Source: a virus
Strand: one strand, 5' to 3'
DNA: 64,000 bases
IMG/VR virus record: IMGVR_UViG_3300036799_000060
Under the pieces are notes generated by a model, which was not told where the DNA came from, ran no database searches, and saw only the letters and a program-made list of their open reading frames with translations. Every line of letters starts with the position of its first letter. Within the stretch, counting starts at the first letter, position 1. This document shows positions 9,222 through 36,605 of this stretch, piece by piece. The position numbers and the translations under genes are program-made.

Positions 9222-9602
9222 GTGGCCGCGCTGACGATCGACGTTGACCTGTCTGAGGTGCTGGCTGGGCAGCGGTCGATCCTGGCGAACCAGGCTACGA
9301 TCTTGACGGCTCTATCGAACCTCACAGACAAGGTGGGTACGTTGGCTACTCAGGCGGATGTGGATGCGCTGTCCGGGCGTGTGCAGGTGCTCACCGACGC
9401 GGTAAACACGGGCGTGGGGGCGCTGAAAACCTCGCTGGCTGGCATCCGCCAGGACATCAGCGACCTGAAGAACGCCAACCCGGCCCTGGACCTGTCGTCG
9501 CTGTCGGCCAACGTGGCGGCGGCCGAGGCGGCGGTGGGGACGCTCGGCGGGCAGGTGGCCGACGCGGGCGAGCTGGACGCCGAGAACCCGGCGACGCCGT
9601 AG
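9222..9602 (+). CDS. coiled-coil, fibre-like protein (126 aa)
   Basis: Listed ORF. Heptad-like, Ala/Leu/Thr-rich sequence (LANQATILTALSNLTDKVGTLATQADVDALSGRVQVLTDAVN...). Confidence 0.55.
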   Translation: MAALTIDVDLSEVLAGQRSILANQATILTALSNLTDKVGTLATQADVDALSGRVQVLTDAVNTGVGALKTSLAGIRQDISDLKNANPALDLSSLSANVAAAEAAVGTLGGQVADAGELDAENPATP

Positions 9603-9604
9603 CT

Positions 9605-10321
9605 GTGCTGTTCGGGGCGAATCAGAACCACTACCCGGAGATGGCCGCTAGGGTCCACGGGATGAGTGTGCAGCGCTCGTATAAGCCGATGGCTCTGGGC
9701 TGGCCGGTGATGCCGGACGGGCAGGTGGCGCACTGGTCGATCCGCCCGGATCGTGACGCGCTGCTGGCGGGCGAGCTGGACGCTGGCCTGGTGTCGCTGC
9801 TGGGGGAGGCGCCGCCGGGTTCGCTGCTGACGGGCTGGCACGAGGCCGAGCACGCCGACCTGCCGGGCACGGTGGCGCAGCAGCAGGCGTGGGTGCACGG
9901 CATCCACACCTACCTGCACCACCTGGTGCACGACACCCGGTCCGATGTGCTGTATGGGCCGGTGACGACGATGGGCTCCGGGCGTGGCTGGGTGGTTCCG
10001 GGGATGGACTTCTACGGCGTGGATCTGTACGACCTGCACGGCACCACTGATCCGAAGGCGGCGCTGTCGGCCTGGTCGGCGAAGATGCCGGACACTGGGT
10101 ACCGGGTGGTGGCGGAGACCAACTCGTCGGTGAAGGGGCACCGGCCGTCGTGGTTCAAGGCGGTGTATGAGTGGCTGGCTGGGAACCACGGGATTGCGCT
10201 GGAGACGTTCTGGCTGCCGTCAGGGCCGCTGTCGGGGCCGTGGGTAGATGATGACTGGCCGACGATCTCGGCGCTGCGCCGGGTGGCGGAGTCGGCGGGC
10301 CGCCCGCCGTGGCGGCCGTGA
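9605..10321 (+). CDS. putative glycoside hydrolase-like protein (238 aa)
   Basis: Listed ORF. TGWHEAEH and VVAETNS resemble the acid/base and nucleophile Glu motifs of clan GH-A (GH26/GH5-like) TIM-barrel enzymes. This assignment is from memory only. Confidence 0.4.
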   Translation: MLFGANQNHYPEMAARVHGMSVQRSYKPMALGWPVMPDGQVAHWSIRPDRDALLAGELDAGLVSLLGEAPPGSLLTGWHEAEHADLPGTVAQQQAWVHGIHTYLHHLVHDTRSDVLYGPVTTMGSGRGWVVPGMDFYGVDLYDLHGTTDPKAALSAWSAKMPDTGYRVVAETNSSVKGHRPSWFKAVYEWLAGNHGIALETFWLPSGPLSGPWVDDDWPTISALRRVAESAGRPPWRP

Positions 10322-11120: not shown

Positions 11121-11579
11121 ATGGAGATGATCTGCCAGGGGCCTGACTGCGGGATCGTGTTCGAGGCGAAGCGGAAGAACGCGAAGTACCACGACAAGGC
11201 ATGCTCTGTCCGGGCCAGCCGCGCCGGTCGGCTGGGTGAGGCGACCCCGGCTGGGCCGGGCCGTGGCAGGCGGGTGCCGGTGGCGGTGGCGTCCGAGCTA
11301 GGGCGGACGACGCGGCGGGCGCTTGAGGCGGTGGACCGGGTGGACACGTGGGCCGGGCAGGCGGCGCTCGTGCTCGCGGCGCGGATCGACCGGGGCGGCG
11401 CGGAGACGGGCTCGGCTCTCGCGTCGATGATCAAGGAACATGCGCTGGCGATGGACCGGGCGCTGGCCGAGGCCCGGCAGGGCGACCCGGTGGAGGCGCT
11501 TCAGGACGGGGTGGCCAAGCGGGCCGCCGACGATGTGGCCAGGCAGCGCGAGAAGCATGGCAACGCTTCAGCTAGTTGA
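11121..11579 (+). CDS. terminase small subunit (putative)
   Basis: Position immediately upstream of and overlapping TerL. N-terminal zinc-finger-like CQGPDCG...KYHDKAC followed by a helical region, as in many actinophage small terminases. Confidence 0.6.
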   Translation: MEMICQGPDCGIVFEAKRKNAKYHDKACSVRASRAGRLGEATPAGPGRGRRVPVAVASELGRTTRRALEAVDRVDTWAGQAALVLAARIDRGGAETGSALASMIKEHALAMDRALAEARQGDPVEALQDGVAKRAADDVARQREKHGNASAS

Positions 11580-13071
11580 GCCTGCCTACTGGCATCTGGC
11601 CGAGTCGTTCCGCACCGAGGGGCCTGCGGTAGCGGACCTGTGCGACGGGGCCAGCTACTCGCCGGACGGCGAGCAGCGGATGCTCCTGGACGGGATCTTC
11701 GCCAAGACGGCTGCGGGTAAGAGCGTGGCGTTCGCCATTGCGATCCTGGCGTGCCGCCAGAACATCAAGACATCCACTGAGAAGATGGCGGCGCTCGGGT
11801 GGCTGTTCCTGTTCCACATCGACCCGATCATCTGGACTTCGCACGAGTGGGATCAGGTCACCGAGTCGTTCCGCGGCCTGGACGAGATCATTGCCGGTTC
11901 GCCGTATCTGTCGCGGCAGATGCGCAGCATCAACCGGGCGCAGCGGGACATGGAGATCGTGACCCGCCGTGGCGGGCGGATGCTGTTCAAGACGAGGACG
12001 CCGGGCGGCGGCCGTGGCCTTACCGGGGAAAAGGTGATCCTGGACGAGGCGTGGAAGCTGCGGGCGACGCATGTCGGGTCGCTGACGCCCACGATGAGCG
12101 CCCGGTCGATCACGGGCGATCCGCAGATCGTCTACGGCTCCAGCGCGGCGCATGAGGATTCCGAGGTGCTGCACCCGCTGATTGAGCGCGGGCGGGCGGC
12201 GGCGACAGATCCACGTGCGGCGCTGCTGGAGCGGCGGCTGATGTTCGCCGAGTGGTGCGCTCCGCCCCCGGAGATCGCCTGCGATCGTGGGAGCCGGTGC
12301 ACGCATGACCTCGACACACCGGGCTGCGGCTGTGACAAGCCCGAGTTCATCCGCATGGGGAACCCGGCGCTGGACCGGCGGATCGACCTGGAGTTCATCC
12401 AGACGGCTGAGCGGCGGGATATGCCGCCGCACGAGTTCGGCCGCGAGCGGATGGGCTGGCATGACAAGCCGCCGGGGCAGGGCCAGGTGATCCCGCTGCT
12501 GGAGTGGGCGGCTGGCCTGGACGCCAAGTCCAACCCGGGGTCTACGTTTGCCCTGTCCGTCGTCTACACGTGGGACAAGAAGCGGGCGGCGATCGGCCTG
12601 GCGGGGCGGCGGCCGAGGGACCACGGCTGGCATGTGGAGATCGCCGACCTGCTGGACACCACGGCGCTGCTGCCACGGCTGAAGGCGATCATTGCGAAGG
12701 CGCGCAAGCGGGGGCGCACATGCTGCGGTATCGCGGTCGACCGGGGCGCGTTCGAGGCCGAGTGCATCCCGTCGCTGGAGCGGGCGCATCTGCCGGTGGT
12801 GCGGATGGGCACGGCCGAGGTGGCGGCGGCCTACTCGGGGTTCTACAACTCGGTGATGGCCGGGCATGACCTGTTCCACCGTGGCCAGGATGACCTGACT
12901 CTCGCGCTCATGGGCGCGTCCACCCGTACGGTGGGCGACGCCGGGGAGGCGTGGGGGCGGCGGATCTCCGGTATCGAGATCGCCCCGATTGTGGCAGTAA
13001 CGAACGCCCGGTGGCTGCATGACCGTGAGGCGCCGGACGAGGTGAGCGAACCGGGAGCGTGGGCGCTGTGA
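11557..13071 (+). CDS. terminase large subunit
   Basis: 504 aa from ATG 11557. ATPase-like AILACRQN(I/K)T and VILDEAW (Walker B-like) motifs, then a nuclease-type C-terminal half. Gene order is TerS-TerL-HNH-portal. Confidence 0.85.
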   Translation: MATLQLVEPAYWHLAESFRTEGPAVADLCDGASYSPDGEQRMLLDGIFAKTAAGKSVAFAIAILACRQNIKTSTEKMAALGWLFLFHIDPIIWTSHEWDQVTESFRGLDEIIAGSPYLSRQMRSINRAQRDMEIVTRRGGRMLFKTRTPGGGRGLTGEKVILDEAWKLRATHVGSLTPTMSARSITGDPQIVYGSSAAHEDSEVLHPLIERGRAAATDPRAALLERRLMFAEWCAPPPEIACDRGSRCTHDLDTPGCGCDKPEFIRMGNPALDRRIDLEFIQTAERRDMPPHEFGRERMGWHDKPPGQGQVIPLLEWAAGLDAKSNPGSTFALSVVYTWDKKRAAIGLAGRRPRDHGWHVEIADLLDTTALLPRLKAIIAKARKRGRTCCGIAVDRGAFEAECIPSLERAHLPVVRMGTAEVAAAYSGFYNSVMAGHDLFHRGQDDLTLALMGASTRTVGDAGEAWGRRISGIEIAPIVAVTNARWLHDREAPDEVSEPGAWAL

Positions 13072-13223
13072 GCGCAGGTGGTGCAGGTGATAGCAACAGC
13101 CGGGCCGTGGAGCGGGAGGAGAACCTGAAGCGGCTCGTTGCGGCGCTGGTGGCAGAGTTCGGTGCCCGCAAGGTATACGGGGTGGCTGAGCAGTTGTGGC
13201 TGAAGTCCACCACCGATGAGTGA
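13068..13223 (+). CDS. small hypothetical protein (51 aa)
   Basis: Unlisted ORF. GTG 13068 overlaps the TerL stop (GTGA) and its own stop overlaps the HNH start. GC3 bias. Confidence 0.4.
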   Translation: MSAGGAGDSNSRAVEREENLKRLVAALVAEFGARKVYGVAEQLWLKSTTDE

Positions 13224-13605
13224 CGCCGGGCCGCTGCCCTACGTGGAGTGGACACCCCCACCGGTTACCGGGCTAGCTGCGCCGGTCGCGGGTGAGCGGG
13301 TGCGGCTGGTGATCACCAGCGGTGTGGTGGAGCTTCAGCCGTGCGGCCTGTACGCCTCCCATTTCCACCCGATGCCTGAGAAGCATCACGTAGTGCCCGA
13401 GTCGTGGTGGGTGAAGGCAGGCAAGCCGGTCGCGTCGCCGATGAAGCTGCTTTGCCCGAACTGCCACTACTCCACCCACGTGGCGCTAGACGGGATTTTG
13501 CGCGGGCTGGACGTGGGCCTGCTGCCGCCCCGGTGCGTGGTGCTGGCGCGGGAGGGGATCGCTGGCGCCGAGGCGGCGGGGCTCACCCCGGCGCTGACCC
13601 TGTAG
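13216..13605 (+). CDS. HNH endonuclease (terminase-associated)
   Basis: HHVVPESWW...CPNCHYSTH is a classic HNH core. It lies between terminase and portal, as in HK97-like cos phages. Confidence 0.8.
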   Translation: MSDAGPLPYVEWTPPPVTGLAAPVAGERVRLVITSGVVELQPCGLYASHFHPMPEKHHVVPESWWVKAGKPVASPMKLLCPNCHYSTHVALDGILRGLDVGLLPPRCVVLAREGIAGAEAAGLTPALTL

Positions 13606-13956: not shown

Positions 13957-15456
13957 GTGACGCGGCTGATCGACCGCTGGCTGTCGCGCGCCGACCAGCC
14001 TGGCTACAACGAGAACTACTACACCGGGGCGGAGTACGCCACCGGGCTGGACGTGTCCGGCCAAGGCCGGGAGGGCTCGCCGCAGGGGATCGTGCGGCTG
14101 GCCCGGCAGGCGTACCGGCAGAACGGGATCGTGTTCGCGTGCGAGGCCGTCAAGCAATGGCTGTTCTCCGAGGCCCGGTTCCAGTTCGAGGCGCTGGACG
14201 ACGGGCACATTTTCGGCGACACGTCGCTGCGGCTGCTGGAGCACCCGTGGCCGAACGGTGACAGCGGGAACCTGCTCGGCCGGGCGTGCAACGACGGCAG
14301 CATGGGCAACTGTTACTTCCGCAAGGCGGTCCCGGCTGGGGGCGGCGATCCGGTGCTGGTGCGGATGGTGCCGGAAAAGGTGACGATCATCAGCCAAGAG
14401 CTGGCCGACGATCTGGGCCGGACGTGGAAGCAGCCCATCGGCTACCTGGAGGACATGGGGCCGGGCCGCGAGCCGCAGATGTTCACCACCGAAGAGGTGG
14501 GGCATTTTGCGCCGCTGGTGGACCCGGATGCGGCGTGGCGGGGCATGTCGTGGCTGACGCCGATCCTGTCCGATGTCCGGTCGGACGCCAAGCTGACCGA
14601 GTACAAGACGTTCCACCTGGACAACGGCGCCATGCCGGGCCTGGTGATCAAGTACGCGGTGAAGCTGTCAAACAAGACGATCGACACGCTGCGCAAGCGG
14701 GTGCGGGCGAAGTACGGCGGCGCGGAGAACGCGGGGAACGTGCTGGTGCTGGACGAGGGCGCCGACCTGGCGGTGGCCGGATCGACGCTCGAACAGTTGC
14801 AGTACGACGCGGTGTCCAAGGCCGGTGAGCGGCGCGTGTGCGCGGCGGCGGGGCCGGGCCTGCTGGTGATCTGCGGGTTCGACAAGGGCGGCTACCAGGA
14901 GGCGATCCGCGAGCTGGCGGACCTGTGGGCGCGGCCGAACTGGCGGATGCTGTGCGCGTCGCTGGAGCACCTGATCCCGGGGCCGATGGCGAATCCCGAG
15001 GTGCCGGTGCGCCTGTGGTACGACGTGGGCGGCATCGCCGCGCTGCGCGAGGGCGAGTTGCAGCGGGCACAGGCGTTCCTGGTCAAGGCGCAGGGGCTCG
15101 CGTCGTCGGTGGCGGCGGGGTTCACCCGGCAGTCGGCGGTCAAGGCGGCCGAGACGGGCGACCTGGCGCTGCTGGTGCCGTCGCCGGATGCGCCGCCTCC
15201 GGGTGTGTCGGGGCGGGAGACCGCTACCGAGCGGCTGGGGCCGGGCGGGCAGATGCAGCAGCCGCCGACCGGCGGCCCGGCTGGGAACACGGCCGGGAGG
15301 CCGCCGCAGGGTGGCAGGCCGCAGCAGCTTGCCGGGGCGACGGCCCCGAACGTGCCGAATGCCAAGCCGGGTGCGGCGGCGGCGCTGCCGTCGCTGCCGC
15401 TGGGGGCGCGCGGCGGTACCGGGAACGCGAACGCCAACGGGAGTCCGAAGAAGTGA
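13957..15456 (+). CDS. portal protein (HK97 family)
   Basis: 499 aa in the expected position. The region GMSWLTPILSDVRSDAKLTEYKTFHLDNGAMPGLVIKY is typical of HK97-type portals. Gly/Pro-rich C-terminal tail. Confidence 0.85.
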   Translation: MTRLIDRWLSRADQPGYNENYYTGAEYATGLDVSGQGREGSPQGIVRLARQAYRQNGIVFACEAVKQWLFSEARFQFEALDDGHIFGDTSLRLLEHPWPNGDSGNLLGRACNDGSMGNCYFRKAVPAGGGDPVLVRMVPEKVTIISQELADDLGRTWKQPIGYLEDMGPGREPQMFTTEEVGHFAPLVDPDAAWRGMSWLTPILSDVRSDAKLTEYKTFHLDNGAMPGLVIKYAVKLSNKTIDTLRKRVRAKYGGAENAGNVLVLDEGADLAVAGSTLEQLQYDAVSKAGERRVCAAAGPGLLVICGFDKGGYQEAIRELADLWARPNWRMLCASLEHLIPGPMANPEVPVRLWYDVGGIAALREGELQRAQAFLVKAQGLASSVAAGFTRQSAVKAAETGDLALLVPSPDAPPPGVSGRETATERLGPGGQMQQPPTGGPAGNTAGRPPQGGRPQQLAGATAPNVPNAKPGAAAALPSLPLGARGGTGNANANGSPKK

Positions 15457-15466
15457 GGGAGGGCTT

Positions 15467-18307
15467 GTGCACGGGATCGCGTGGGATGAGGCTGAGCGGG
15501 CGTTCTGGAACCCGCGCCTGCATCCCCGCGACCCCGGGGGCAAGTGGGCGGCCAAGGCTGGCGAGCTGGACGCGCTGGCCAACGAGGTGCAGCACGAGCA
15601 CTTTGTGAACGCGTTCCTGGGCGGCACGGCCAAGGTGGACGATGCGGGCGCGCTGGCCCCGGCGGCAGCCCATCTGCACGATGCGGCGGACGCGTTGCGC
15701 AAGGGTGACACGCACGGCGCGGAGGCCAACCTGGCCGAGGCGGAGCGGCACGCGGCGGCGATGCCCGGCAAGCGGATGAAGGGCCATCACCACAAGATCA
15801 AGGGCCACCACCACCACCTGCGCAAGTACAACGGGGGCAGCTCGTTCGGTGAGTCCCTGGCGGGGGAGCTGGCCGGTGCCCTTGCGGCACGGGCGTTCAA
15901 CCCGCGCCAGCCGCGTGACCCGCACACCGGCAAGTGGGTTGCGGTGGCGGGGCACCTGGACAAGCTGGCGTCTGAGATCGGGCATCACCCGAGCGCGGTA
16001 GCAGCGAGGCGGGCTGCGTCGGCGCTGCGGCACGGCGACCGTGAGGGCGCGATCCGGCATCTGGCGTCGGCGCACCGGCAGGCGGCCACGATGCGCGGCG
16101 GCGAGCGTCACGTGGTGGCGATTGACCGGCACCTGGCTGGGCTGATGGAGCCGCAGCCGATGACCCCGGAGGAGCTGGCCAGCCTGGCTGGGCATATCCC
16201 GCCGGGGATGGAGGCGCCTGCCACTCATGTGGGGCTGGCGATGCTCGGGCTTGAAGGCGGACCGGGGGACCTGGCCGCGATGCTGGCGGCTGAGCCTAAG
16301 CCGCCACGGGTGTGGACCGGTGGCGTTGCCCGGTTCTCGCGGTGGGGGCTGGCGGAGCGGCTGGCCGACCTGGCGGACGCCGACCCAAAAGGTGAGGCCG
16401 TCCGGGCGGCGGCTGGCGGGCACCACATCCCGGGGACGCCGTACCACTACCGGCACGGGTGGATTCCGGTTGCCCCGTACTTCAAGCAGCCGGGTGATCT
16501 TCAGCCGGGTGATGTGGTGGAGTTCCGGGGCCACAAGCACATGGTGCTTCAGGCGCCTGGCCAGGCTGGGCGGGTGAACCTGCCGCCGGACAAGGGCAGC
16601 GGCGTGTATCTGCGGCCGATCGCTGGCAGCAGCATCTTCCCCGAGTCCGGGGTGAAGCATTACGCCACGGCCAGGGTGCATCAGCACAAGATGATCGGCC
16701 CGGGGATCGTCGGTGTGCAGACGGTGACGGGCAAGGGCGAGGTGCTGGGCGGCGCGGCCAAGGTCGACCTGTTCTCGTCAGCGTTCGCGCAGCACCAGCG
16801 CGCGGCCGACGATCTGGCGGCGAGCCTGCCCGGTGTGATCGGCCCGGGGGAGACGCGCCCGCTGAACGGTGCGCAGATCTATGACCGGTTCCCGCCACGG
16901 CCGGGTGAGAGCGCGGGGGCGTACCGGCGGCGGATCTATGGCATGTCGATGCCGCACAACCTGGTGTCCACCACCACGGCCCGCCCGGGGCATGGGAACC
17001 ACGCCATCGGCGGCGGGACGATCCCGAGCCTGGCGACGCCGGGGAAGCCGCCGCACATAACGAATGTGAAGCCGGACCGGCAGCTTCAGCCGCTCATGAC
17101 CCCGGCCGACCCGGCGATGAACGGGCCGCAGCCGAAGGACATGGACGAGGCGGTGACGCAGATCGCGTTCGGGTTGATCCGCAACGCGCAAGGCCCGCTA
17201 GGCGACTACCCGAACGCGGCCGAGATGCTGAGGTTCTGGCCGCCGCACGTGTCCGAGTCCCCGGTGGATTACCGCAACCGGCTCGCGGCGATGACGCCGA
17301 AGGATTTCAAGGACGGCGCGGAGGTGGCGCGCGGCCGCGCCCGGGTCGGCGCGGGCGGCCTCGGTGCGCAGTTCGCGGCTGGGCCTGAGCCGGATCACCG
17401 CCCGGAGTGGGCCAAGGCCGCTGGGCTGGTGTGGAACAGCCAGTTCGGCTGGGTGGTGGAGTCGGATAACGCCAGGCTGCTGGCCGGGGACTCCCTGCCG
17501 CCGGGCTCGGCGCCGCACGTCCAGGTGCCCTCGTCTGCGCTTGCGCCTGAGGGCGAGTCGCGGGTGCAGGTGCTCGGGAAAGGTGTCACCCCTGAAGAGG
17601 TGTCCCTGATTCACTCGATTGAATCGGGGGTCAGGAGCACCGATGAGGAGGGTGTCGGCGGGGCGCAGTCCGAGGCGGAGTTCCTGACGCTGAACGACGG
17701 CGAGCGGGTGATGCACAAGTCCTACCTGTCCTGGGATCAGGGCGGGGACTTCTCCCCAGCGGACCTGGCGGACGCCGAGTACCTGTCTGGGCAGGTGGCG
17801 GATGTGATCGGCGGCACCGGGGCGCCTGCGGTGGTGCGCGGTGATACGCCGGATGACATCTACATGCAGTTCAAGGACATGGAGATAGCCGCTAACTGGC
17901 TGTCGGACCGGGGTATCGACTACGGCGACCCGTTCAGTTCGTCGCCTGACACGTTCATGAATCCGCAGTCGTACCGGATCGGCCTGCTGGACTACCTGAC
18001 GCAGAACAGCGACCGGCACTACCACAACTACGGGTTCGATGCCGACGGCAACCCGGTGCCGATCGACCACTCGTCCACGTTCGGCATCCAGGGCGGCGGC
18101 TGGGATTCGCCGTTCCTTCAGGCGGCCGATACGGCGCTGGAGCATCACCGCAGCGACGCCATCTCGGTGGCTGAGCTGGACGAGATCGGCAAGCGGCTGG
18201 AGCACGTGAAGGGCCAGTTCACTGACGCGGGCCGGGGCGACTGGTACAACGGCGTGCTGTCGCGGCTGGCCGAGTTCCGGCGGGCGACCGAGACGGGGCA
18301 GTTCTGA
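15467..18307 (+). CDS. large head-module protein (946 aa) with C-terminal PI3/4-kinase-like (atypical protein kinase fold) domain
   Basis: GTG 15467 lies 10 nt after the portal stop. Two NPR.(H)PRDP..GKW motifs and a His-rich KGHHHKIKGHHHH run. The C-terminus has VMHKS, DAEYLSG, LDYLTQNSDRHYHNYG (DRHxxN catalytic loop, 18011-18028) and PIDHSSTFG (DxG-like). Confidence 0.6.
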   Translation: MHGIAWDEAERAFWNPRLHPRDPGGKWAAKAGELDALANEVQHEHFVNAFLGGTAKVDDAGALAPAAAHLHDAADALRKGDTHGAEANLAEAERHAAAMPGKRMKGHHHKIKGHHHHLRKYNGGSSFGESLAGELAGALAARAFNPRQPRDPHTGKWVAVAGHLDKLASEIGHHPSAVAARRAASALRHGDREGAIRHLASAHRQAATMRGGERHVVAIDRHLAGLMEPQPMTPEELASLAGHIPPGMEAPATHVGLAMLGLEGGPGDLAAMLAAEPKPPRVWTGGVARFSRWGLAERLADLADADPKGEAVRAAAGGHHIPGTPYHYRHGWIPVAPYFKQPGDLQPGDVVEFRGHKHMVLQAPGQAGRVNLPPDKGSGVYLRPIAGSSIFPESGVKHYATARVHQHKMIGPGIVGVQTVTGKGEVLGGAAKVDLFSSAFAQHQRAADDLAASLPGVIGPGETRPLNGAQIYDRFPPRPGESAGAYRRRIYGMSMPHNLVSTTTARPGHGNHAIGGGTIPSLATPGKPPHITNVKPDRQLQPLMTPADPAMNGPQPKDMDEAVTQIAFGLIRNAQGPLGDYPNAAEMLRFWPPHVSESPVDYRNRLAAMTPKDFKDGAEVARGRARVGAGGLGAQFAAGPEPDHRPEWAKAAGLVWNSQFGWVVESDNARLLAGDSLPPGSAPHVQVPSSALAPEGESRVQVLGKGVTPEEVSLIHSIESGVRSTDEEGVGGAQSEAEFLTLNDGERVMHKSYLSWDQGGDFSPADLADAEYLSGQVADVIGGTGAPAVVRGDTPDDIYMQFKDMEIAANWLSDRGIDYGDPFSSSPDTFMNPQSYRIGLLDYLTQNSDRHYHNYGFDADGNPVPIDHSSTFGIQGGGWDSPFLQAADTALEHHRSDAISVAELDEIGKRLEHVKGQFTDAGRGDWYNGVLSRLAEFRRATETGQF

Positions 18308-20061
18308 TGGCGACTTTGCGCGCGTTCCCGGTGGGCGGCGGCAGGCCGCTGCGCGGCCAGGTCACCGTCTCGGGTGGGGAGCTTCAGCCGGGCGGCGATC
18401 CGGTGATGCTGCGGTTCGTTCAGCAGGTGATCGCCCAGGGCGCGACCCCGGATGAGGCGGTCAGCCAACTGGACGGGTGGACGAACGGCTACGTGATCTA
18501 CTCCACCAGCGCAGCTAACCCGGTCGTGTTCGGTGGGCAGGCGCGGCGGTTCGATGTGAACGAGCTGCGCGACCCGTCGGGGAAGTGGACCCGTGGCGGG
18601 ATGGCCGGGCTGCCGTCCGTCCGCAAGCTGGCGCCGCGAGTGAAGCCGATCACGGCGGCCGAGGCGCGGGGCAACTCGCGGGCCGTGTCCCTGTCGGAGT
18701 TCCAGACGATCGCCCAGGCGGGGCGGGGCAAGCTGGCCGGGCTGGCCCGGCGGCGGGACGGCGTGGAGGGCCTGGACCGGAACTGGCCGACCCTGAAGGC
18801 TGCCGCGTTCGCGGAGGTACGCAAGCCGTGGGGCGGCATGACGATTGACGCCGCCACGGGCAAGCCGCTCGCTTCCGACGCGGACCGGTATGCGCTGTCG
18901 GTGAAGCCGCCCGGCATCCACACCATCTCGGTGCCTGAGGACGCGTCCCAGGCCGATTTCGGGGCGGCGATGGACCGGGCTCGGGTGGAGTTCCGGGGCG
19001 AACTGGACAAGGCCCAGCATTACCTCGGGATCTTCCACGACGACGACAACAACCGGGTAGACATCGACCCGGTGGTGGTTGTGGACTCCGTGCCCGAGGT
19101 GGAGCAGATCGGCGCCTACACCCACGCGATCGGCGGCGCCTACCACTTCAAGAGCGGCGATGGGTTCTTCGCGCCGCACGTGGCCGAGGGAGCTAGCCGG
19201 ATGACAGCCGACCTGCCGGACCTGGGTGAGGGCGTGCACTGGGCTGGGCCTGGCCAGTGGCGGTCGGCGGCGGACGCGGCCCAGGAACCGTTCGATGGGG
19301 ACGACGGCACGGCCGACGGCAGCGCGGTGGGCTCGAACCCGGACGTGCCCGGGGACGCGGGGGACAACCCGGTGTCGCGCGGCCTGGACTGGGAGCCGCT
19401 GGAGTACCTGCTGCGGGCGTACGACCCTGGTGAGCGGCGCGGCCCGGACGGCAAGTGGATTCACGGCGCGTCCCCGGTGGCTGGCCTGATCGGTACGAGC
19501 CATCTGCCGCAGTCCCCGGCGCAGGGTGAGCCGTCCACGGCGCAACTCATGAACATGATCTCCGACCTGCGCGCCCAGATCTCGGTCAACGACACGCGGC
19601 TGCGGTCCGAGCAGGCGTCGAAGCTGCGGGATGTGGTGGAGCAGATGCGCGCCGAGGAGCACCGGATCGCCGCCGAGAAGATTGCGGGCAAGACGGCGGA
19701 GGAACTGAAGGCTGAGCGGCGCAAGGCGATCATCCGCACGGTGGCCACGGTGCTGGGCCTGGTGGCGGTCGGTGTGCTGATCGTCGCCACGGCCGGGATG
19801 GCGGTTCCGCCGCTGGCCGAGGCCGGGGTGGCGGTTGGGCCGCTGATCGGCGGCGAGTTGATCTCGGCTATCGGCGAGCACCGGGCGCGGAAGAAGGCGG
19901 CCGAGAGCATCGGCCGGGCGGACATGGCGTCGGTGCGGGATCAGGTGGTGGAGGCGATGACGACGCTGGTGGCCAAGGTGTGCGGTGTTGGCGCCGATGT
20001 GGCCGCCCGTGCGGCCGAGTCGCTGGTGTCGGCGGCCGAGGGCCAGGTCCAGTCCGCGTAG
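18307..20061 (+). CDS. head-module protein (584 aa) with C-terminal coiled coil and TM segments
   Basis: ATG 18307 overlaps the upstream stop. Motifs RDPSGKW and ERRGPDGKW. C-terminal IIRTVATVLGLVAVGVLIVATAGMAVPPLAEAGVAVGPLIGG is hydrophobic. Confidence 0.6.
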   Translation: MATLRAFPVGGGRPLRGQVTVSGGELQPGGDPVMLRFVQQVIAQGATPDEAVSQLDGWTNGYVIYSTSAANPVVFGGQARRFDVNELRDPSGKWTRGGMAGLPSVRKLAPRVKPITAAEARGNSRAVSLSEFQTIAQAGRGKLAGLARRRDGVEGLDRNWPTLKAAAFAEVRKPWGGMTIDAATGKPLASDADRYALSVKPPGIHTISVPEDASQADFGAAMDRARVEFRGELDKAQHYLGIFHDDDNNRVDIDPVVVVDSVPEVEQIGAYTHAIGGAYHFKSGDGFFAPHVAEGASRMTADLPDLGEGVHWAGPGQWRSAADAAQEPFDGDDGTADGSAVGSNPDVPGDAGDNPVSRGLDWEPLEYLLRAYDPGERRGPDGKWIHGASPVAGLIGTSHLPQSPAQGEPSTAQLMNMISDLRAQISVNDTRLRSEQASKLRDVVEQMRAEEHRIAAEKIAGKTAEELKAERRKAIIRTVATVLGLVAVGVLIVATAGMAVPPLAEAGVAVGPLIGGELISAIGEHRARKKAAESIGRADMASVRDQVVEAMTTLVAKVCGVGADVAARAAESLVSAAEGQVQSA

Positions 20062-20207: not shown

Positions 20208-20465
20208 GTGGCCGACGACATGCTGACGCACCGGCTGGAGGCCGTCTCGCGCGGCTACAGCCAGCACCACTACCGGGCCGCCGGTCCATGGACCGATGTG
20301 GGGATCGCCCGGCACCTGCACGGCATATGGGTGGAGGGCGCGGCGGGCCGCCACACGATCAGCCAGTCCTATTTCGGCCGGTACGACGCGGACACGGCAA
20401 CGGTGACCGGGCAGGGGGGCAAGCCGGTTCCGGTGACTCATGTCAGGCGGGCTGCCGGTGGCTGA
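20208..20465 (+). CDS. small hypothetical protein (85 aa)
   Basis: GTG 20208 preceded by GGGAGGG. Begins VADDMLTHRLEA, nearly identical to the start of the next gene. Confidence 0.45.
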   Translation: MADDMLTHRLEAVSRGYSQHHYRAAGPWTDVGIARHLHGIWVEGAAGRHTISQSYFGRYDADTATVTGQGGKPVPVTHVRRAAGG

Positions 20466-22368
20466 CGACATGCTGGCCTACCGGCTGGCGCAGATGGAGC
20501 GCGCGTTCAACCCGCGCGAGGCCCGGGGCTTCGGTGGCAAGTGGGTGCATGTCGGCGGGTCGGACTTCACGTTTGACGGCCCGGCCGGTGGCGACGGGCA
20601 TGTGCGGGCGATCATGTCGGCGGCTGATGTGATCGGCCAGCAGCCGGGGATGGCCGACGCGGCGACGGATGTCCGCAACGCGGGCAAGGCCGTGGCCCGG
20701 CGGGACCTGGCGGCGGCGAACCGGCACCTGGACGGTGCCGCCTACCTGGACAGCATCTACGCGGGCGGCTCCAACCGGAACGACATTGAGGCGATCCGCA
20801 AGAGCCTGGCACGGGTCCCCAAGGGTGCGGTGACCGAGCCAGGCCGCCCGGCTGTGCCGAGTTCGCTCGGCGTGCACCAGGGGCGGCTGAGGGGCAAGCC
20901 GGTGGCGCCTGGCCTGGTCGGTGCCTACGCGTCCGCGACGCGGACGGCGGAGACGGCCACGGCGTCCACGGTGCACGAGCCGGTGGGCACGCCCGGCGGG
21001 CCGGGGCTGTGGAAGCACAAGACGTGGCAGCTTCCGCCGTATATCCAGCATCTCGCCAATGACCTGAAGGCCAAGGTCGGCGAGTCGCGGGCTATCGAGA
21101 TGGCCGTGGGCATCGTCCGCAACTGGAGCGAGGGCCACGACGGCAAGGGCAACAAGGTCAGCGCCGAGGTGCAGGCAGCGGCGGCGAAAAACATCGCGCA
21201 ATGGGACGCGATGAAGGCACGCACCCGACATGGGGCAGCGAGGAGTTCAGCAATGGCGGACGACCAGTACGACGCCGACGGCCTGAGCCAGGAGTGGGAC
21301 CGCCTGGACGACCTGCCGGACCTGTCCGGGGTTCAGCTTGAAGATCTGGACGCTGCGGCCAGCGAGGGCAGCGGCTTCAATGACTGGCACGCCGGGGAGG
21401 TGTCCCGTGCCGCCAAGCTGGGCTCTGGTGCCCGGTTCGCCGCCCTCAAGGCGAAGCTGGCCGCGAAGGGGATCAACAACCCGGGCGCTCTGGCGGCGAA
21501 GATCGGCCGCGCCAAGTACGGCAAGAGCAAGTTCGGTGCGCTGGCGCAGCGTGCCCGCAAGGGCAAGGGCGGCCCGGCCCCGGCGATGCGGGCGGCCACG
21601 GCCGGTGAGATCTTCCGGTACTGGCCGCTGGAGGAGTGCCGCATCATGTCCCGTTCCGAGGGCGGCGAGTACGCCTCGGGCCGGGTGGTGGAGGCGTACG
21701 CAGCGATCTACAACACCCCGGCGGAGATCAAGGACCACGAGGGCCACTACGAGGAGGAGATCGACCGGGGTGCGTTCAGCGACGTGCTGCGGGCGATCTC
21801 CCCCGAGCGCAACCGTGGATTCTGGAACGCCACCTGCCTCTACAACCACGGCATGACCGTGCACGGCACCCCGGCCGAACGGTTCTCCCTCCCGGCGGGC
21901 GTGGCCAAGCACATCTCGTCCGAGTCCAAGGGCCTGCTCACCCGCACCGAGTACGCGAACACGCCGCTCGGTGAGGAGCTGCTGGAGCTGGTCAACATGG
22001 GCGCGCTGCGCAGCCAGTCGTTCACGGGTGGCATCGTCCGCTCGGACCCGACGCTGCGCGGCCCCGGTGACAAGTACCGCCGCGCCTACGGCGGCGCGCT
22101 CCAGCGGGTCAAGCGGCTGGTGCTGGGCCTGCGCGAGTACGGGCTTACGCCGTTCGCGGCGTACTCGGGCGCTGAAGTGCTGGGCGTCCGCATGCAGCTT
22201 CCCGGCTCTCTCCTCACCGAGGAGGAGTGGGAGGAGGAGGACACGTCGGCCGACACAGGCCACGGCGGCTCCCCCGAAGAGGAGAACGTGTCCCGTTCCA
22301 CCGGTAACCGGCTGTACCGCCTCCGCGCCGAGGAGGCGCTGCGGGCCGCCGGTATCGAACTGTCCTGA
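20458..22368 (+). CDS. capsid maturation (prohead) protease, HK97/S78 family, with N-terminal extension
   Basis: C-terminal half: AYAAIYNTPAEIKDHEGHYEEEIDRGAFSDVL...CLYNHG...GLLTRTEY...GALRSQSF matches the HK97 prohead protease pattern. The N-terminus carries FNPREARGFGGKW. Start is GTG 20458 or ATG 20440. Confidence 0.85.
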   Translation: MADDMLAYRLAQMERAFNPREARGFGGKWVHVGGSDFTFDGPAGGDGHVRAIMSAADVIGQQPGMADAATDVRNAGKAVARRDLAAANRHLDGAAYLDSIYAGGSNRNDIEAIRKSLARVPKGAVTEPGRPAVPSSLGVHQGRLRGKPVAPGLVGAYASATRTAETATASTVHEPVGTPGGPGLWKHKTWQLPPYIQHLANDLKAKVGESRAIEMAVGIVRNWSEGHDGKGNKVSAEVQAAAAKNIAQWDAMKARTRHGAARSSAMADDQYDADGLSQEWDRLDDLPDLSGVQLEDLDAAASEGSGFNDWHAGEVSRAAKLGSGARFAALKAKLAAKGINNPGALAAKIGRAKYGKSKFGALAQRARKGKGGPAPAMRAATAGEIFRYWPLEECRIMSRSEGGEYASGRVVEAYAAIYNTPAEIKDHEGHYEEEIDRGAFSDVLRAISPERNRGFWNATCLYNHGMTVHGTPAERFSLPAGVAKHISSESKGLLTRTEYANTPLGEELLELVNMGALRSQSFTGGIVRSDPTLRGPGDKYRRAYGGALQRVKRLVLGLREYGLTPFAAYSGAEVLGVRMQLPGSLLTEEEWEEEDTSADTGHGGSPEEENVSRSTGNRLYRLRAEEALRAAGIELS

Positions 22369-22425: not shown

Positions 22426-23934
22426 GTGAGGCTCCAGGAAATGCTGGACCGCCAGAGCGCGATCCGCAACGAACTGTCCGAGATGGACGCCGACCCGACG
22501 ACCACCGAGGAGGGCGACGGCAACATCCGGGACACGCTCATTGACGAGTATGAGCAGATCGAGAAGCTGAAGGAGCCGGTGCTTCAGCGGATGGAGAAGA
22601 TCAAGCTCATCCAGCGGTCCGACGGCGGCACCGCTGGCGGCTCGCGCGAGTCCGGCTACGACCCGGGTGCCACCGGCCAGGCGTCGCGGTCGTCGTGGGG
22701 CGGCGGCGGAACGCCTGAGTTCATGACGCGCCTGGACCCGTTCGCCGAGCTGGACAAGGTGCGCGACGGCCTGGTGCGCGGCAGCGACATGGTGGCCCGG
22801 TCGATGTCGGTCATCGATATGCACAACAAGCGGGGCATGCTGCTGCCCGAGCGGGCGGAAGAGGCCACGCGCAAGGTGATGTCCGACCCGCTGATCGCCC
22901 GGCACGCGCTGCTCACCGGCCACGATGAGTACGTGGAGGCGTTCAGGATGTACCTGAACGACCCGATGGGTGAGGGGCTCCGCGCCGCGCAGCGGTCGCT
23001 CACTCTGGGTACCGCGTCGGGGGGGTTTTTGTTGCCCTACGTGCTTGACCCGACCATCGTGTTGACCTCGGATGGGAGCACCAACCCGTACCGGGCGATG
23101 GCCGAGATCAAGACCACCACGTCCAACGCGTGGCAGGGAGTGAACTCGGCGGGTGTGCAGATGGGCTGGCTGGATGAAGGCGGCCAGGCCATCGACAACA
23201 CCCCGACGGCCGGGCAGATCCAGGTGTTCCCGAAGAAGGCTGCGGCGTGGGTGATCGCGTCGTTCGAGTCGAACGCTGACACGAACTTCGCCGACCAGCT
23301 TCCCCGCCTGCTCGCGGACTCCAAGGACATCCTGGAGGAGACGGCTTTCGCCCGGGGAACGGGTGGCGTGGCCAACGCCGGGCAGCCGTTCGGGATCATC
23401 ACCCGGCTGGGCACTGCGCAAAAGGTGCTCGCGGGCGGTTCGGCCGTTCCGGCGTTCACCGGCACCGCCGGTTCGGGCGGCGCCAACGGCGGCGGTGTCG
23501 CGGACGTGATGGCGCTGAACGCGGCGCTCGGCCCGAGGTTCCGCCTGTCGGACCGGGTCGGCTGGGTCATGAACATCACCAACATCAACCGCATCCGCAC
23601 GATCGACCAGTTCGGCGGCGGCTCGTTCTGGGCCAACCTGGGCCAGGGCACCCCGCCGACCCTGCTGGACAAGCAGATCAGGGAATCGCCGTCGATCACC
23701 CAGACCCCGGGTACGGGCACCGCGCTGGTTGCGGCGTCGGCCGTGTTCGGCGACTGGAGCAAGTTCTACATCGTGGACAGGATCGGGTCCACGATGCTGT
23801 TCGACCCGCTCCTGAAGGGCGCCGGTACGGCGAACATGCCGACCGGCAACCAGGGCTGGTTCTACTACTGGAGGGTCGGCAGCGATGTTGCTGCGGCGAA
23901 CGCCTTCCGGTGGAGCACTGGCGGCACCGCGTAG
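22426..23934 (+). CDS. major capsid protein (HK97 fold) with N-terminal scaffold-like delta domain
   Basis: GTG 22426 follows GAGAGGGGGAG. N-terminal coiled coil (LQEMLDRQSAIRNELSEM...EKLKEPVLQRMEKIKLIQ), then LTLGTASGGFLLPYVLDPTIV..., typical of HK97-type capsid proteins. It directly follows the protease. Confidence 0.9.
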   Translation: MRLQEMLDRQSAIRNELSEMDADPTTTEEGDGNIRDTLIDEYEQIEKLKEPVLQRMEKIKLIQRSDGGTAGGSRESGYDPGATGQASRSSWGGGGTPEFMTRLDPFAELDKVRDGLVRGSDMVARSMSVIDMHNKRGMLLPERAEEATRKVMSDPLIARHALLTGHDEYVEAFRMYLNDPMGEGLRAAQRSLTLGTASGGFLLPYVLDPTIVLTSDGSTNPYRAMAEIKTTTSNAWQGVNSAGVQMGWLDEGGQAIDNTPTAGQIQVFPKKAAAWVIASFESNADTNFADQLPRLLADSKDILEETAFARGTGGVANAGQPFGIITRLGTAQKVLAGGSAVPAFTGTAGSGGANGGGVADVMALNAALGPRFRLSDRVGWVMNITNINRIRTIDQFGGGSFWANLGQGTPPTLLDKQIRESPSITQTPGTGTALVAASAVFGDWSKFYIVDRIGSTMLFDPLLKGAGTANMPTGNQGWFYYWRVGSDVAAANAFRWSTGGTA

Positions 23935-24051
23935 CCAAACCCCTAGCTACACCGCCGAGTGTGCGGGGATCGGCTCCCGCGACGGCGTGGCCCCGGCCGT
24001 GATCCACGGGGCACCCACATTCCCTCTCCCCCCGGCCAGGAGATCAAGCAG

Positions 24052-25965
24052 ATGGAACTGATCAAGCAGCGTCCCAAGATGCTGTGGCACAGCAACGACC
24101 CCCAGTCGGACACCGGTTACGGGGTGGAAACGGCGCTGTTCGCGCCGCGCATCCGCGACGCCGGGTGGGACATCGTGCTGTCGTGCATGGGCGGCGGGTA
24201 CGGCCCGCACGAGTGGGAGGGCATCACCTGCCTGCCACCGGGGATGACGCCGTTCTCCACTGACATCCTCGCCTCTCACGCTGTGCACCATTTCGGCCGT
24301 GACCCGGGTCTGGTGCTGGTGCACTATGACGCGTGGGCGATCGGCCCGGAGGCCGTGGCCGGGCTGGCCTGCGCCGCGTGGTCCCCGGTGCACTCGCACG
24401 GGATGAGCCGGGGGGACAAGCTGTTTTACCGGCTGTCCGGCGCCTACCCGATCTCCTACAGCCTGCACGGTGTGCGGATGATGCAGGCGGCTGGGCTGGA
24501 GCCCGCCTATGTGCCGCACGGTGTGGACACGTCGCTGTTCCGGCCACAGTCCCCGGAGGAGCGGCAGGCGGCCCGGGAACGGTTCGGGATCTCCCCGGAG
24601 ACGTTCGTGGTGGGGATGGTGGCCGCGAACAAGGGCACCGACCCGCCGCGTAAGGCGTGGGGCGAAGTCATGGCGGCGTTCGCCGCGTTCCACGACCGGC
24701 ACCCGGACTCGCTGCTGTTCGCGCACACTCTGGCCGCGACGCCGGACGGGTACGGCCTGGACTTGCGCCCGCTGATCCGCCACTACGGGCTCGGCGATGC
24801 GGTGCTGTTCAGCGACGACTACGGGCAGGTTGCCAACTTCTACACGCAGGGGTATGTGTCGCGGATCACCGGCCTGGCTGACGTGTTCCTGAACCCGTCC
24901 TACGGGGAAGGGTTCGGCCTCGGCCCGGTGCAGGCGCAGGCGTGCGGCGTGCCGGTGATCGTCGGCGACAACTCGGCCCAGACTGAGCTGTGCGGCTCCG
25001 GGTGGCTGGTGGACTGCCAGCCGTACTGGCATCCCCGCGATGAGGCGAACTGGTATGTGCCGTTCATCGCCTCCATTGAGAAGGCGCTGGAGAAGGCTTA
25101 CCGGGTGTCGCGGCAGCCAGCGCAGCGGGACAAGCTGGCCCGGCGGGCACGCGCGTTCGCGGAGGGCTACGACGCCGACCTGGTGATGAACACGTACTGG
25201 AAGCCCGCGCTCGAAATGCTGGAGCAACTGTGCGGCGCGGCGCTGGTGCGGCCACCTGCCAAGGCGGCGGTGCCGCTGCCCACGGTGGAATCGGACGGGC
25301 TGCGGTGGCTGGCCAGGGGGCCGCACACCGACGACTGGATTTCGGTCGGGCACGAGGACACGCTGGCCCCGGTGCTCGCCGCGCTGTTCCCATCTGACGG
25401 GGTGCTGCTGGACGTGGGCGCGCACGTCGGCCGGTGGGCGCTGCGGCTGGCCGGGCGGGCTAGCCAGGTCATCGCGGTGGAGGCGATGCCGGACACGGCC
25501 GCGTCGCTGCGCTACCACATCGCCCTGAACGGCATTGAGAACGTCGCGGTGATGGAGGTAGCCGCGTGGGACGTGCCGGACAAGCTGATCATGGCGGACA
25601 AGAACCGGCGGGTGACCGGCGGGTCGACCAAGGCGTTCGAGCGTGACGAGGTTCCCGACGGCGAGGGCGTGCAGGTTGAGGCGATACCGCTGGACGCGCT
25701 GCTTGACGAGGTGGAGCGGATCGACCTGGTCAAGCTGGACGTGGAGGGCGCCGACCTGAAGGCCCTGTGGGGGATGCGGGAGACGCTGGCCCGGCTGCGC
25801 CCGGTCCTGTTCATCGAAGATCACTCGATTTACGGCTACTACACCCAGGCCGAGCTTTACGACCTGCTCGAAGAACTGGGCTATGACGTGCAGCCGTTCA
25901 CCGCGCACCTGGCCGGGGACCGGGTGGCGCCGTATGCGATTGCCCGGCCGAAAGCGGAGGTGTGA
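24052..25965 (+). CDS. glycosyltransferase (GT-B/GT4-like) fused to FkbM-family methyltransferase
   Basis: ATG 24052 follows CCAGGAG. The N-terminal approximately 400 aa carry NPSYGEGFGLGPVQAQACGVPVIVGD (the GT4 E-x7-E region). The C-terminal approximately 200 aa carry LLDVGAHVGRWALRLA...VEAMPDT...IDLVKLDVEGADL (FkbM signature). Confidence 0.8.
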   Translation: MELIKQRPKMLWHSNDPQSDTGYGVETALFAPRIRDAGWDIVLSCMGGGYGPHEWEGITCLPPGMTPFSTDILASHAVHHFGRDPGLVLVHYDAWAIGPEAVAGLACAAWSPVHSHGMSRGDKLFYRLSGAYPISYSLHGVRMMQAAGLEPAYVPHGVDTSLFRPQSPEERQAARERFGISPETFVVGMVAANKGTDPPRKAWGEVMAAFAAFHDRHPDSLLFAHTLAATPDGYGLDLRPLIRHYGLGDAVLFSDDYGQVANFYTQGYVSRITGLADVFLNPSYGEGFGLGPVQAQACGVPVIVGDNSAQTELCGSGWLVDCQPYWHPRDEANWYVPFIASIEKALEKAYRVSRQPAQRDKLARRARAFAEGYDADLVMNTYWKPALEMLEQLCGAALVRPPAKAAVPLPTVESDGLRWLARGPHTDDWISVGHEDTLAPVLAALFPSDGVLLDVGAHVGRWALRLAGRASQVIAVEAMPDTAASLRYHIALNGIENVAVMEVAAWDVPDKLIMADKNRRVTGGSTKAFERDEVPDGEGVQVEAIPLDALLDEVERIDLVKLDVEGADLKALWGMRETLARLRPVLFIEDHSIYGYYTQAELYDLLEELGYDVQPFTAHLAGDRVAPYAIARPKAEV

Positions 25966-25969
25966 AACG

Positions 25970-26143
25970 GTGGAGCACCTGCGGTTCTTCTGGCCGCCGT
26001 GTATGAACCTGCCGCTCGGCGGGCACCGGATTCTGGTTGTCGGCCTCGGCCGCCTGGACCGGCATGGGCGGATGCACCGCTGGCAGATCTGCTGCTACCC
26101 GATGCAACTGAGTTTCTGCTGCGGCCGGAACGAGGATCTGTGA
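25970..26143 (+). CDS. small Cys-rich protein (57 aa)
   Basis: GTG 25970 lies 9 nt after GGAGG. Very high GC3. Product VEHLRFFWPPCMNLPLGGHRILVVGLGRLDRHGRMHRWQICCYPMQLSFCCGRNEDL. GTGA overlap with the next gene. Confidence 0.4.
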   Translation: MEHLRFFWPPCMNLPLGGHRILVVGLGRLDRHGRMHRWQICCYPMQLSFCCGRNEDL

Positions 26144-36453: not shown

Positions 36454-36605
36454 CCGCCTCCTGTGACGCTCTGCGGCCCCCTGCCCGCCTGACGGGTGGG
36501 GGGCCACGTCCTGTGTATGGGCTCTGGCGGCCACGCCGCAGGAGCCGTTCTGACGTGCCCCGTGGGGGGACGTGTAACCGCTTCACGACTCATACAGGAG
36601 GGCGC

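Follow-up and report, generated by a model that had tools for sequence, protein, structure and literature searches.

The closest described counterparts of the gene analyzed here come from two conflict-effector frameworks, those of the polyvalent proteins and of the polymorphic toxins (PMC5512222, PMC3482391). Packaging and injection are ascribed to effectors that are fused with a MuF or portal domain (PMC5512222, PMC9503650), and a MuF toxin concept has been put forward (PMC5576092). The kinase of the polyvalent proteins is of the Ser/Thr/Tyr type, has lost its C-terminal subdomain and occurs mainly in phages of Verrucomicrobia-Chlamydia and Bacteroidetes (PMC5512222); the text of that paper mentions neither PI3K nor phosphatidylinositol. 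The only kinase in the polymorphic-toxin catalog is a lantibiotic-synthetase-type ‘Tox-peptide kinase’ (PMC3482391), and the MuF toxin paper mentions no kinase (PMC5576092). A further precedent is the kinase of phage T7, which phosphorylates many host proteins at the start of infection and disarms bacterial defenses (PMC13645617). Here, we analyze ORF946, a gene for a 946-amino-acid protein on the plus strand (positions 15467–18307) of a 64,000-nucleotide stretch of viral DNA, IMG/VR record IMGVR_UViG_3300036799_000060 (the window: this whole stretch). The C-terminal ~240 amino acids of its product are predicted to form an intact minimal kinase, closest in sequence to the type II PI4Ks and in predicted fold to VPS34.

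ORF946 sits in the same slot as the polyvalent and MuF/portal effectors, after the portal and among the late virion genes (PMC5512222, PMC5576092). The domains that accompany its kinase in relatives (MuF, portal, ADP-ribosyltransferase, NUDIX, Zeta toxin, 2H and GNAT) are the typical polyvalent repertoire, but ORF946 itself differs in having no detectable MuF domain and a single recognizable catalytic domain. Beside the kinase it holds conserved modules without an assignment (amino acids 319–360 and the repeat motifs), and relatives are plainly polyvalent, with two to four kinases or with MuF, NUDIX, kinase and HExxH together. Proteins with WXG100_2 domains, as in the type VII secretion polymorphic toxins of Actinobacteria and Firmicutes (PMC3482391), carry the same kinase family, whereas ORF946 is a gene of a phage head operon in which Pfam finds neither a WXG100 nor an LXG trafficking domain. 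The likeness to the T7 kinase (T7K, gp0.7) is one of functional analogy only: the lineage is unrelated, gp0.7 is expressed early and is not a head-module gene, and our searches found no specific sequence similarity of ORF946 to it. Head-module injected effectors are known; what is new is a kinase cargo from a different superfamily, which extends known principles and adds no new category. The domain can be detected by existing profiles. The searchable literature appears to describe neither its clade nor its use as cargo of phage heads or secretion systems: queries for PI3_PI4_kinase with phage, or phosphatidylinositol with MuF, returned nothing relevant in a literature that covered few subscription journals.

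The C-terminal kinase domain

A preliminary description, made from the letters of the window alone, had placed a 946-amino-acid gene directly after the portal and had read its C-terminus as a PI3K/PI4K-like kinase fold. The reading frame and the JGI gene call (P0001, the same 946 amino acids on a 90.8-kb metagenome contig) confirm the gene, which starts with GTG at 15467 and stops with TGA at 18305–18307. Its compact kinase domain spans amino acids 704–943 (17576–18295, plus strand), as seen by the envelope of the family hidden Markov model (HMM), by PF00454 (PI3_PI4_kinase), and by AlphaFold and Foldseek. Searches of profiles and of structures had been set beforehand as possible refutations of the kinase reading, and both returned kinase folds: PF00454 matches at E 4e-4, PI4K2A matches a family profile at E 9.3e-6, and Foldseek finds kinases at E about 1e-6.

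The active site can be followed motif by motif along the plus strand. The motifs that the preliminary description quoted all lie where it had put them, and the four that it picked proved to be the true functional ones when we examined their conservation in a 40-sequence kinase-domain alignment (A3), built from the best matches of an exhaustive HMM search. The Gly-rich loop, GVGGAQ (amino acids 729–734; 17651–17668), lies between β1 and β2 of the structural model; G729, G732, A733 and Q734 are invariant among close homologs, and the loop’s G43 (domain numbering) is conserved in at least 90% of A3. The predicted ATP-binding lysine of β3 is Lys751 in VMHKS (amino acids 748–752; Lys751 codon 17717–17719), present as K62 of the domain in 40 of 40 A3 sequences. 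Glu771 in DAEYL (DAEYLSG from amino acid 769; Glu771 codon 17777–17779) is the predicted αC glutamate, E82, with a conservation of at least 90%. The catalytic loop, D849-R-H-Y-H-N854 (DRHYHN; exactly 18011–18028, within a stretch that begins LDYLTQNSDRH at amino acid 841), aligns to DRGNDN of PI4K2A and to DRHxxN of PI4KB. Within it, D849, R850 and N854 (D160, R161 and N165) are invariant in A3, and His851 (H162) is kept in at least 90%. Finally, Asp867 in PIDHSS (from amino acid 865; Asp867 codon 18065–18067) is the predicted DFG-equivalent, metal-binding aspartate; Ile866 and Asp867 (I177 and D178) are invariant and align to IDNG of PI4K2A.

Profile comparisons place the domain in the PI3K/PI4K superfamily. 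Taken alone, the ORF946 domain matches PF00454 with 20.8 bits over the catalytic-loop and DFG region. All four close homologs give the same match, and protein P0005 scores above the threshold, with 39.5 bits. The same Pfam family is matched by 39 of the 40 A3 sequences (best E 1e-10) and by 37 of 44 full-length relatives (best E 7e-20). When a profile of four sequences was compared with the sequences in the PDB, everything matched at the catalytic-loop position was a kinase: the xylosylkinase Fam20B, PI4K2A and PI4KB. With the A3 profile, PI4K2A ranks first (E 9.3e-6), followed by PI4K2B (3e-5) and then PI4KA, PI4KB and PI3Kα, and the A3–PI4K alignment takes in LLDxLxxNxDRxxxNW, IDxGxAF and, at its end, a conserved PF. 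One further PDB match differs from all the others, which lie at the catalytic loop: 9x4g/9x4h (245 amino acids, ‘non-specific serine/threonine protein kinase’) aligns to the N-lobe half of A3 (positions 6–110; E 0.005). It was not retrieved with a single N-lobe sequence, and the T7 kinase paper does not cite it (PMC13645617).

An AlphaFold model of the domain computed with the A3 alignment reached a predicted local distance difference test (pLDDT) score of 93.3 and a predicted template modeling (pTM) score of 0.91. Its elements follow one another as in a minimal bilobal kinase. The N-lobe has five strands, which bear the G-loop and the lysine; helix αC, with the glutamate, comes next, and a further helix leads to the catalytic loop. 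After the loop, two short strands run up to the DFG-type aspartate, and four C-lobe helices complete the order. In domain numbering, Lys751 lies in the strand 58–64 and Glu771 in the helix 75–92. Foldseek returned 394 PDB matches for this model at E <= 1e-3, led by the kinase domains of VPS34 (E 7e-7 to 1e-5, TMq 0.50–0.55, probability 1.0); PI4KIIIβ (within the top 50), Rio1/2 and PRPK follow. An earlier model built from four sequences (pLDDT 70.8) also found solely kinase folds, with Rio2 and Fam20C on top. We do not retain those two as best structural matches, as the 40-sequence model supersedes that low-confidence one.

The phage domain shares with the type II PI4Ks (PI4K2A and PI4K2B) the motifs (L)LDY(L/I)xxNxDRxxxNW and IDxGxAF, the downstream PF, the bilobal fold and the catalytic residues. 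It is much smaller (~240 amino acids) and has no hydrophobic segment, and phage and toxin proteins bear it at their C-terminus or in tandem copies; the eukaryotic type II PI4Ks carry insertions, palmitoylation and membrane-binding elements, all of which the phage domain lacks. With VPS34 and PI4KIIIβ, compared by way of the predicted model, it has the DRHxxN loop in common and an identity of 12–17%, and the eukaryotic domains are twice as large and come with helical and C2 accessory domains. HipA, Fam20/CotH, Rio and ABC1/COQ8 match weakly at the same catalytic-loop positions (Fam20B at E 0.03–0.05; HipA_2 in 3 and ABC1 in 7 of the 40 A3 sequences; Rio2 and Rio1 by Foldseek). With the A3 profile and the high-confidence model these matches are consistently weaker than those to PI4K and PI3K. 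The invariant Lys/Asp/Asn/Asp set argues against a dead module. Judged from alignment and model together, the domain is very probably an active kinase-fold enzyme of the PI3K/PI4K superfamily.

Distribution of the kinase domain

The exhaustive HMM search, run over 1.84 billion cluster representatives, found 1,344 matches at E <= 1e-3 and 794 at E <= 1e-10, which sets the size of the family at no fewer than 1,344 clusters at 50% identity. Among the 150 best representatives, a domain copy ends within 30 amino acids of the C-terminus in 109, and 52 carry two to four copies, often as tandem repeats in giant proteins. Fusion of the kinase domain to MuF or portal domains recurs in other phages. In 44 full-length relatives, the partners are Rho_N (9), Phage_Mu_F (7), ADP-ribosyltransferase (ADPrib_exo_Tox; 4), HeH (4), SAP (3) and portal-type domains (3); a Zeta toxin, an Arr-type ADP-ribosyltransferase, a GNAT, a 2H ligase and a WXG100_2 domain were each seen once. 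The best structural matches in BFVD are large phage proteins annotated as portal (1201 amino acids), as ADP-ribosyltransferase (Mycobacterium phage Onyinye) and as NUDIX. They also include a ‘PI3K/PI4K catalytic domain-containing protein’ of the haloarchaeal virus HSTV-2, an automatic label found on a few UniProt entries.

Nearly all family members are listed in databases as ‘hypothetical protein’ or without a name; one NCBI member bears the misleading name ‘ICP22 family protein’. Word-indexed homolog searches retrieved only three to five relatives, even with the family alignment, and a tblastn search of cultured phages and plasmids with family domains reached only phage Pumpernickel, the Micromonospora plasmid pMLP1 and one Verrucosispora plasmid. 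A scan of GTDB with patterns from close homologs returned nothing, and a second scan that used a cellular family member gave matches, in Actinoallomurus.

The closest related phage, represented by the ~92.7-kb contigs L002 and L003, has three consecutive kinase genes after its portal (L002 8001–14195; L003 4996–11190), encoding proteins of 1002, 709 and 352 amino acids, each ending in the kinase domain and all with intact catalytic motifs; the phage of the window has a single kinase copy. The 1002-amino-acid protein, P0002, is the positional counterpart of ORF946, and P0003 is the product of the second kinase gene. The gene that follows ORF946, ORF584, resembles P0003 in its N-terminal 72 amino acids (32% identity, E 6e-5) and differs in the remainder. 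The two proteins are alike only in this N-terminal part, which looks like an exchange of C-terminal cargo within one head-module slot. ORF584 ends in a strongly hydrophobic or transmembrane segment (amino acids 475–500) and has no family match in Pfam, PHROGs or NCBIfam.

More distant relatives combine the kinase with recognized delivery domains. On the viral contig L005, the 1315-amino-acid protein directly after the portal consists of Phage_Mu_F (37 bits, cutoff 29.6), NUDIX, kinase (E 8e-45) and an HExxH module. The last, with the sequence LHE(M/L)IH ... EEGFTELGAT.HA.EFF and no Pfam match, is common to P0002 (amino acids 93–231) and the L005 protein (amino acids 1065–1255, nucleotides ~9315–9890; 31% identity, E 3e-20); ORF946 lacks it. 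This module may correspond to the metallopeptidase domain known as a hub of polyvalent proteins. Microbacterium phage Pumpernickel encodes, two genes past its portal, a 2235-amino-acid protein (gp82, annotated as hypothetical) whose C-terminal end is the kinase domain.

In bacteria, the chromosome of Actinoallomurus sp. CA-150999 (L007, 6–23468) encodes a protein of 3231 amino acids that joins a WXG100_2 domain at its N-terminus to the kinase (E 9e-40) and Amidoligase_2. It adjoins a 1200-amino-acid toxin with WXG100_2 and glutamine-deamidase domains and an 1885-amino-acid kinase protein. This cluster of giant proteins is a putative type VII secretion polymorphic-toxin locus. In A. vinaceus (L006), an open reading frame of at least 3866 amino acids contains three kinase copies.

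MuF/portal fusions and WXG100 toxins are both believed to be routes by which proteins reach another cell, and we read the presence of one domain in both as the signature of a conflict effector. On this distribution among database sequences, the kinase domain is best described as a mobile cargo module.

The head module and the N-terminal region

ORF946 is part of a structural module on the plus strand that is of textbook siphovirus type. Its genes run from the large terminase (11440–13071; PHROG 9, E 4e-38) through an HNH gene and the portal (13957–15456; Pfam Phage_portal 55 bits, and the PHROG portal family) to ORF946, ORF584 (18307–20061; 584 amino acids), a prohead protease fusion of the S78/HK97 type (20440–22368), the major capsid protein (22426–23934) and, further on, the tape measure (36513–39494) and endolysin (44549–45406). 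ORF946 thus stands next to the portal of a head-morphogenesis module, with the protease and capsid genes downstream, in the order of late virion genes. It starts 10 nucleotides past the portal stop, and a ribosome-binding site, GGGAGGG (15457–15463), immediately follows that stop and lies 3 nucleotides upstream of the GTG. The ORF946 stop and the ORF584 start overlap as TGATG, which couples the two genes translationally. Between the portal, ORF946, ORF584, protease and capsid genes, no promoter-like or terminator-like sites occur beyond chance. The G+C content of the window is ~70% throughout.

The capsid protein is ~31% identical to its nearest cultured relatives, from Mycobacterium and Gordonia phages, and no phage genome matched when the 12.5-kb head region was searched with megablast. 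These results mark the virus as a new, uncultured actinobacteriophage. It is siphovirus-like, and ORF946 belongs to its late head-module proteins.

The ~700 amino acids upstream of the kinase contain no domain recognizable by Pfam, PHROGs or NCBIfam. Rather, they are built from repeats and short conserved modules. The preliminary description had noted two copies of a head-module motif and a His-rich run in the N-terminus, and we found all three on the plus strand. Two tandem units (amino acids 15–100 and 145–215) each consist of an NPxxPRDPxGKW motif and a helical stretch. The first motif copy, NPRLHPRDPGGKW, lies at 15503–15547 (amino acids 15–27 at 15509–15547) and the second, NPRQPRDPHTGKW, at 15890–15937 (amino acids 145–157 at 15899–15937). 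The helical stretches that follow them are alike (ALRKGD..GA and ALRHGD..GA), and the His-rich run KGHHHKIKGHHHHLRK (15779–15826, amino acids 105–120) separates the two units. This run is not kept in P0002. Two Pfam matches to the helical repeats were discarded as non-significant, YfdX (20.6 bits, under the 26.6 cutoff) and HRDC (E 0.25), and the matches of the whole protein to methyl-coenzyme M reductase γ and FKBP in a phmmer search of the PDB are spurious (E > 0.1).

The motif recurs in the neighboring genes. In the general form (F)NPxxxR(D/G)xxGKW followed by small residues it has five copies in the window: two in ORF946, two of the NP/RD..GKW type in ORF584 (18544–18588 and 19414–19458, plus strand) and one, FNPRE.R..GGKW, in the protease fusion (20500–20544, plus strand). 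Among the real genes of the window, NP..R..GKW is found only in these three genes between portal and capsid. Across the kinase family, 39 of 150 proteins have it, with 46 copies in all where shuffled sequences give 0.4 (~100-fold), and in some members it takes the form GRWTRGG directly upstream of the kinase domain. We speculate that it is a candidate signal for head targeting, docking or processing by the protease.

Two further elements mark the middle of the protein. A 42-amino-acid module, HHIPGTPYHYRHGWIPVAPYFKQPGDLQPGDVVEFRGHKHMV (16421–16546, amino acids 319–360, plus strand), is ultra-conserved: with the consensus HHIPGTPYHYRHGWIPVAPYFKxPGDLxPGDVVEFRGHKHMV it is near-identical in P0002, P0003 and P0007, although elsewhere these proteins share only ~35% identity. 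Shorter variants of its Y.HGW(I/V/F) core (GPxGYIHGWxFVG) flank the kinase domain in the MuF protein of L005 and in other relatives. Further downstream, the motif PPRPGESxxxYRxR(I/L) is found twice on the plus strand in the Pro/Gly-rich linker region (16892–16936, amino acids 476–490, and 17240–17284, amino acids 592–606). Its general form, PP(R/H)xxESxxxYRxR(L/I), is kept in P0002, P0003 and P0004. ORF946 is a soluble protein by prediction, with no transmembrane or hydrophobic segment (maximum Kyte-Doolittle value 1.15).

Several neighbors deserve mention in their own right. The small HNH-endonuclease-like gene between large terminase and portal (13216–13605, plus strand) rests on a weak Pfam match of 17.9 bits; the terminase–portal interval is the usual site of HNH proteins that assist cos-type terminases. 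In the protease fusion, the prohead protease domain occupies amino acids ~410–590 of 642, after a ~400-amino-acid N-terminal extension that holds the GKW motif and an Ala/Lys-rich region and that may serve as a scaffold; the protease gene of the related phage also matches DUF6582. Directly past the capsid gene (23959–25965) lies a 668-amino-acid fusion of a GT4 glycosyltransferase and an FkbM-type methyltransferase, found as the same fusion in the related phage. It is followed by a second methyltransferase gene (25999–26799; Methyltransf_24/CmcI-like). These genes suggest glycosylation of virion proteins, possibly with methylated sugars.

Possible roles of the kinase

The arrangement of the locus and the distribution of the domain lead us to favor a role at the onset of infection. 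ORF946 would be made late, alongside the head proteins, and would enter the procapsid through its non-catalytic N-terminal part, with the NPxxPRDxxGKW motifs that it has in common with the other two genes between portal and capsid. It would then be ejected together with the DNA. In the new host, with ATP as the donor, the kinase would phosphorylate some component of the cell, most likely one or more proteins, at the very start of infection, so that takeover is favored or defense blunted. Packaging, ejection, phosphotransfer activity and the nature of the substrate are what we infer here. We consider it reasonably likely that the whole chain holds, that is, that the protein is packaged, is ejected and phosphorylates a host component. 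T4 Alt is an injected phage enzyme, and enzymes packaged in the head act before phage gene expression. By analogy, the ORF946 kinase would be functionally like T7 gp0.7 but delivered pre-formed, as Alt is.

Several observations weigh against this reading. The preliminary description had assigned ORF946 to the slot of the MuF-like minor head proteins, and ORF946 occupies that slot with no detectable MuF domain: Pfam finds no PF04233 match even at E <= 10, and hhalign, comparing the ORF946 family with the MuF-containing N-terminus of the L005 protein, returns a probability of 0.2. NCBIfam has no match for the protein, and its N-terminal 700 amino acids contain no recognized head-targeting domain. 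PHROGs yields two weak matches of unknown function (E 0.011 and 0.029), both within the kinase domain. Very few cultured phages carry the domain. Its assignment also has weak points of its own: the protein’s own PF00454 score is under the gathering threshold (20.8 against 27.1 bits), so that its place in the superfamily is transitive, by way of relatives and a predicted rather than solved structure, and the kinases nearest to it by sequence act on lipids rather than proteins. The presence of ORF946 in virions, its kinase activity and its substrate are putative.

Without being packaged, ORF946 could instead act late in the producing cell, phosphorylating assembly proteins (portal, scaffold, protease or capsid) or host factors of assembly or lysis. 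Co-transcription with the assembly genes fits such a role, as does the missing MuF domain, and the NP..R..GKW motif common to ORF584 and the protease fusion could mark members of an assembly complex rather than target cargo. The relatives speak differently: the common denominator of WXG100 toxins and MuF/portal fusions, whose cargo the domain is, is delivery into another cell, and copies in tandem and a place at the C-terminus are what one expects of effector arsenals rather than of assembly factors. We therefore regard a purely late role as unlikely.

The same relatives bear on whether the substrate is a lipid. A true lipid kinase would phosphorylate phosphatidylinositol or a related inositol lipid at the host membrane and remodel the envelope for DNA entry or takeover. 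Type II PI4Ks are the best sequence match among solved structures, in an alignment that extends through IDxGxAF...PF, VPS34 and PI4KIIIβ are the best structural matches, and phosphatidylinositol occurs in Mycobacterium and Gordonia, the host genera of those cultured phages whose capsid proteins are nearest; lipids of this type are abundant and essential in Actinobacteria. Yet the PI3K/PI4K superfamily also includes protein kinases, the PIKKs, and a structurally similar domain is found in haloarchaeal tailed viruses and uncultured phages. ORF946 lacks a membrane-binding or hydrophobic segment, and the partners in its relatives (ADP-ribosyltransferase, NUDIX, Zeta toxin and Rho_N/HeH/SAP) point to protein or nucleotide targets in the cytoplasm. 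On balance, a lipid substrate seems quite improbable. A more specific version of this idea, which we hold to be decidedly doubtful, is that the clade is the prokaryotic and viral sister of the eukaryotic type II PI4Ks and that ORF946 is a virion-injected lipid kinase acting on host phosphatidylinositol, giving a phosphoinositide-like signal or lesion as infection begins.

It is very unlikely that ORF946 is a MuF-type polymorphic toxin, released with particles or at lysis to poison non-immune competitors to the benefit of a lysogen. The domain does occur in type VII secretion-type toxin loci of Actinoallomurus, its position is C-terminal, and related phages have exchanged this C-terminal part (ORF584 and P0003). 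However, the gene after ORF946 encodes a 584-amino-acid head-module protein and not a small immunity-like one (no dedicated immunity search was made), no integrase appears among those window open reading frames that were annotated, which are only some of them, and three paralogous kinases in one phage fit a takeover with multiple targets better than toxin/immunity pairs. Least probable is that the kinase fold serves another chemistry (AMPylation or glutamylation, as in the kinase-fold enzymes SelO and SidJ) or has lost catalysis and is a structural part or scaffold of the head: kinase-fold enzymes with other chemistry exist and the activity of the family is only predicted, but the Lys, the Asp of DRHxxN, the Asn and the DFG-type Asp are invariant over 40 divergent sequences, and these residues and the αC Glu (at least 90%) occupy canonical secondary-structure positions.

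If ORF946 is indeed an injected kinase that phosphorylates host components, the head module of this phage holds a PI3K/PI4K-like kinase, apparently as injected cargo, that acts before phage gene expression. Phage kinases are emerging as broad anti-defense weapons, with the T7 kinase as precedent (PMC13645617), and the domain of ORF946 represents a large, nearly unnamed family common to phage heads and type VII secretion toxins. The identity of its target would expose a conserved bacterial vulnerability, probably in Actinobacteria, the phylum of Mycobacterium. Were the lipid-kinase alternative true instead, ORF946 would be the first case of a phage delivering a phosphoinositide kinase, and it would offer a clue to how the type II PI4Ks arose. 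The compact ~240-amino-acid domain itself offers a minimal model of the PI3K/PI4K fold, and it may bear on where the type II PI4Ks came from.

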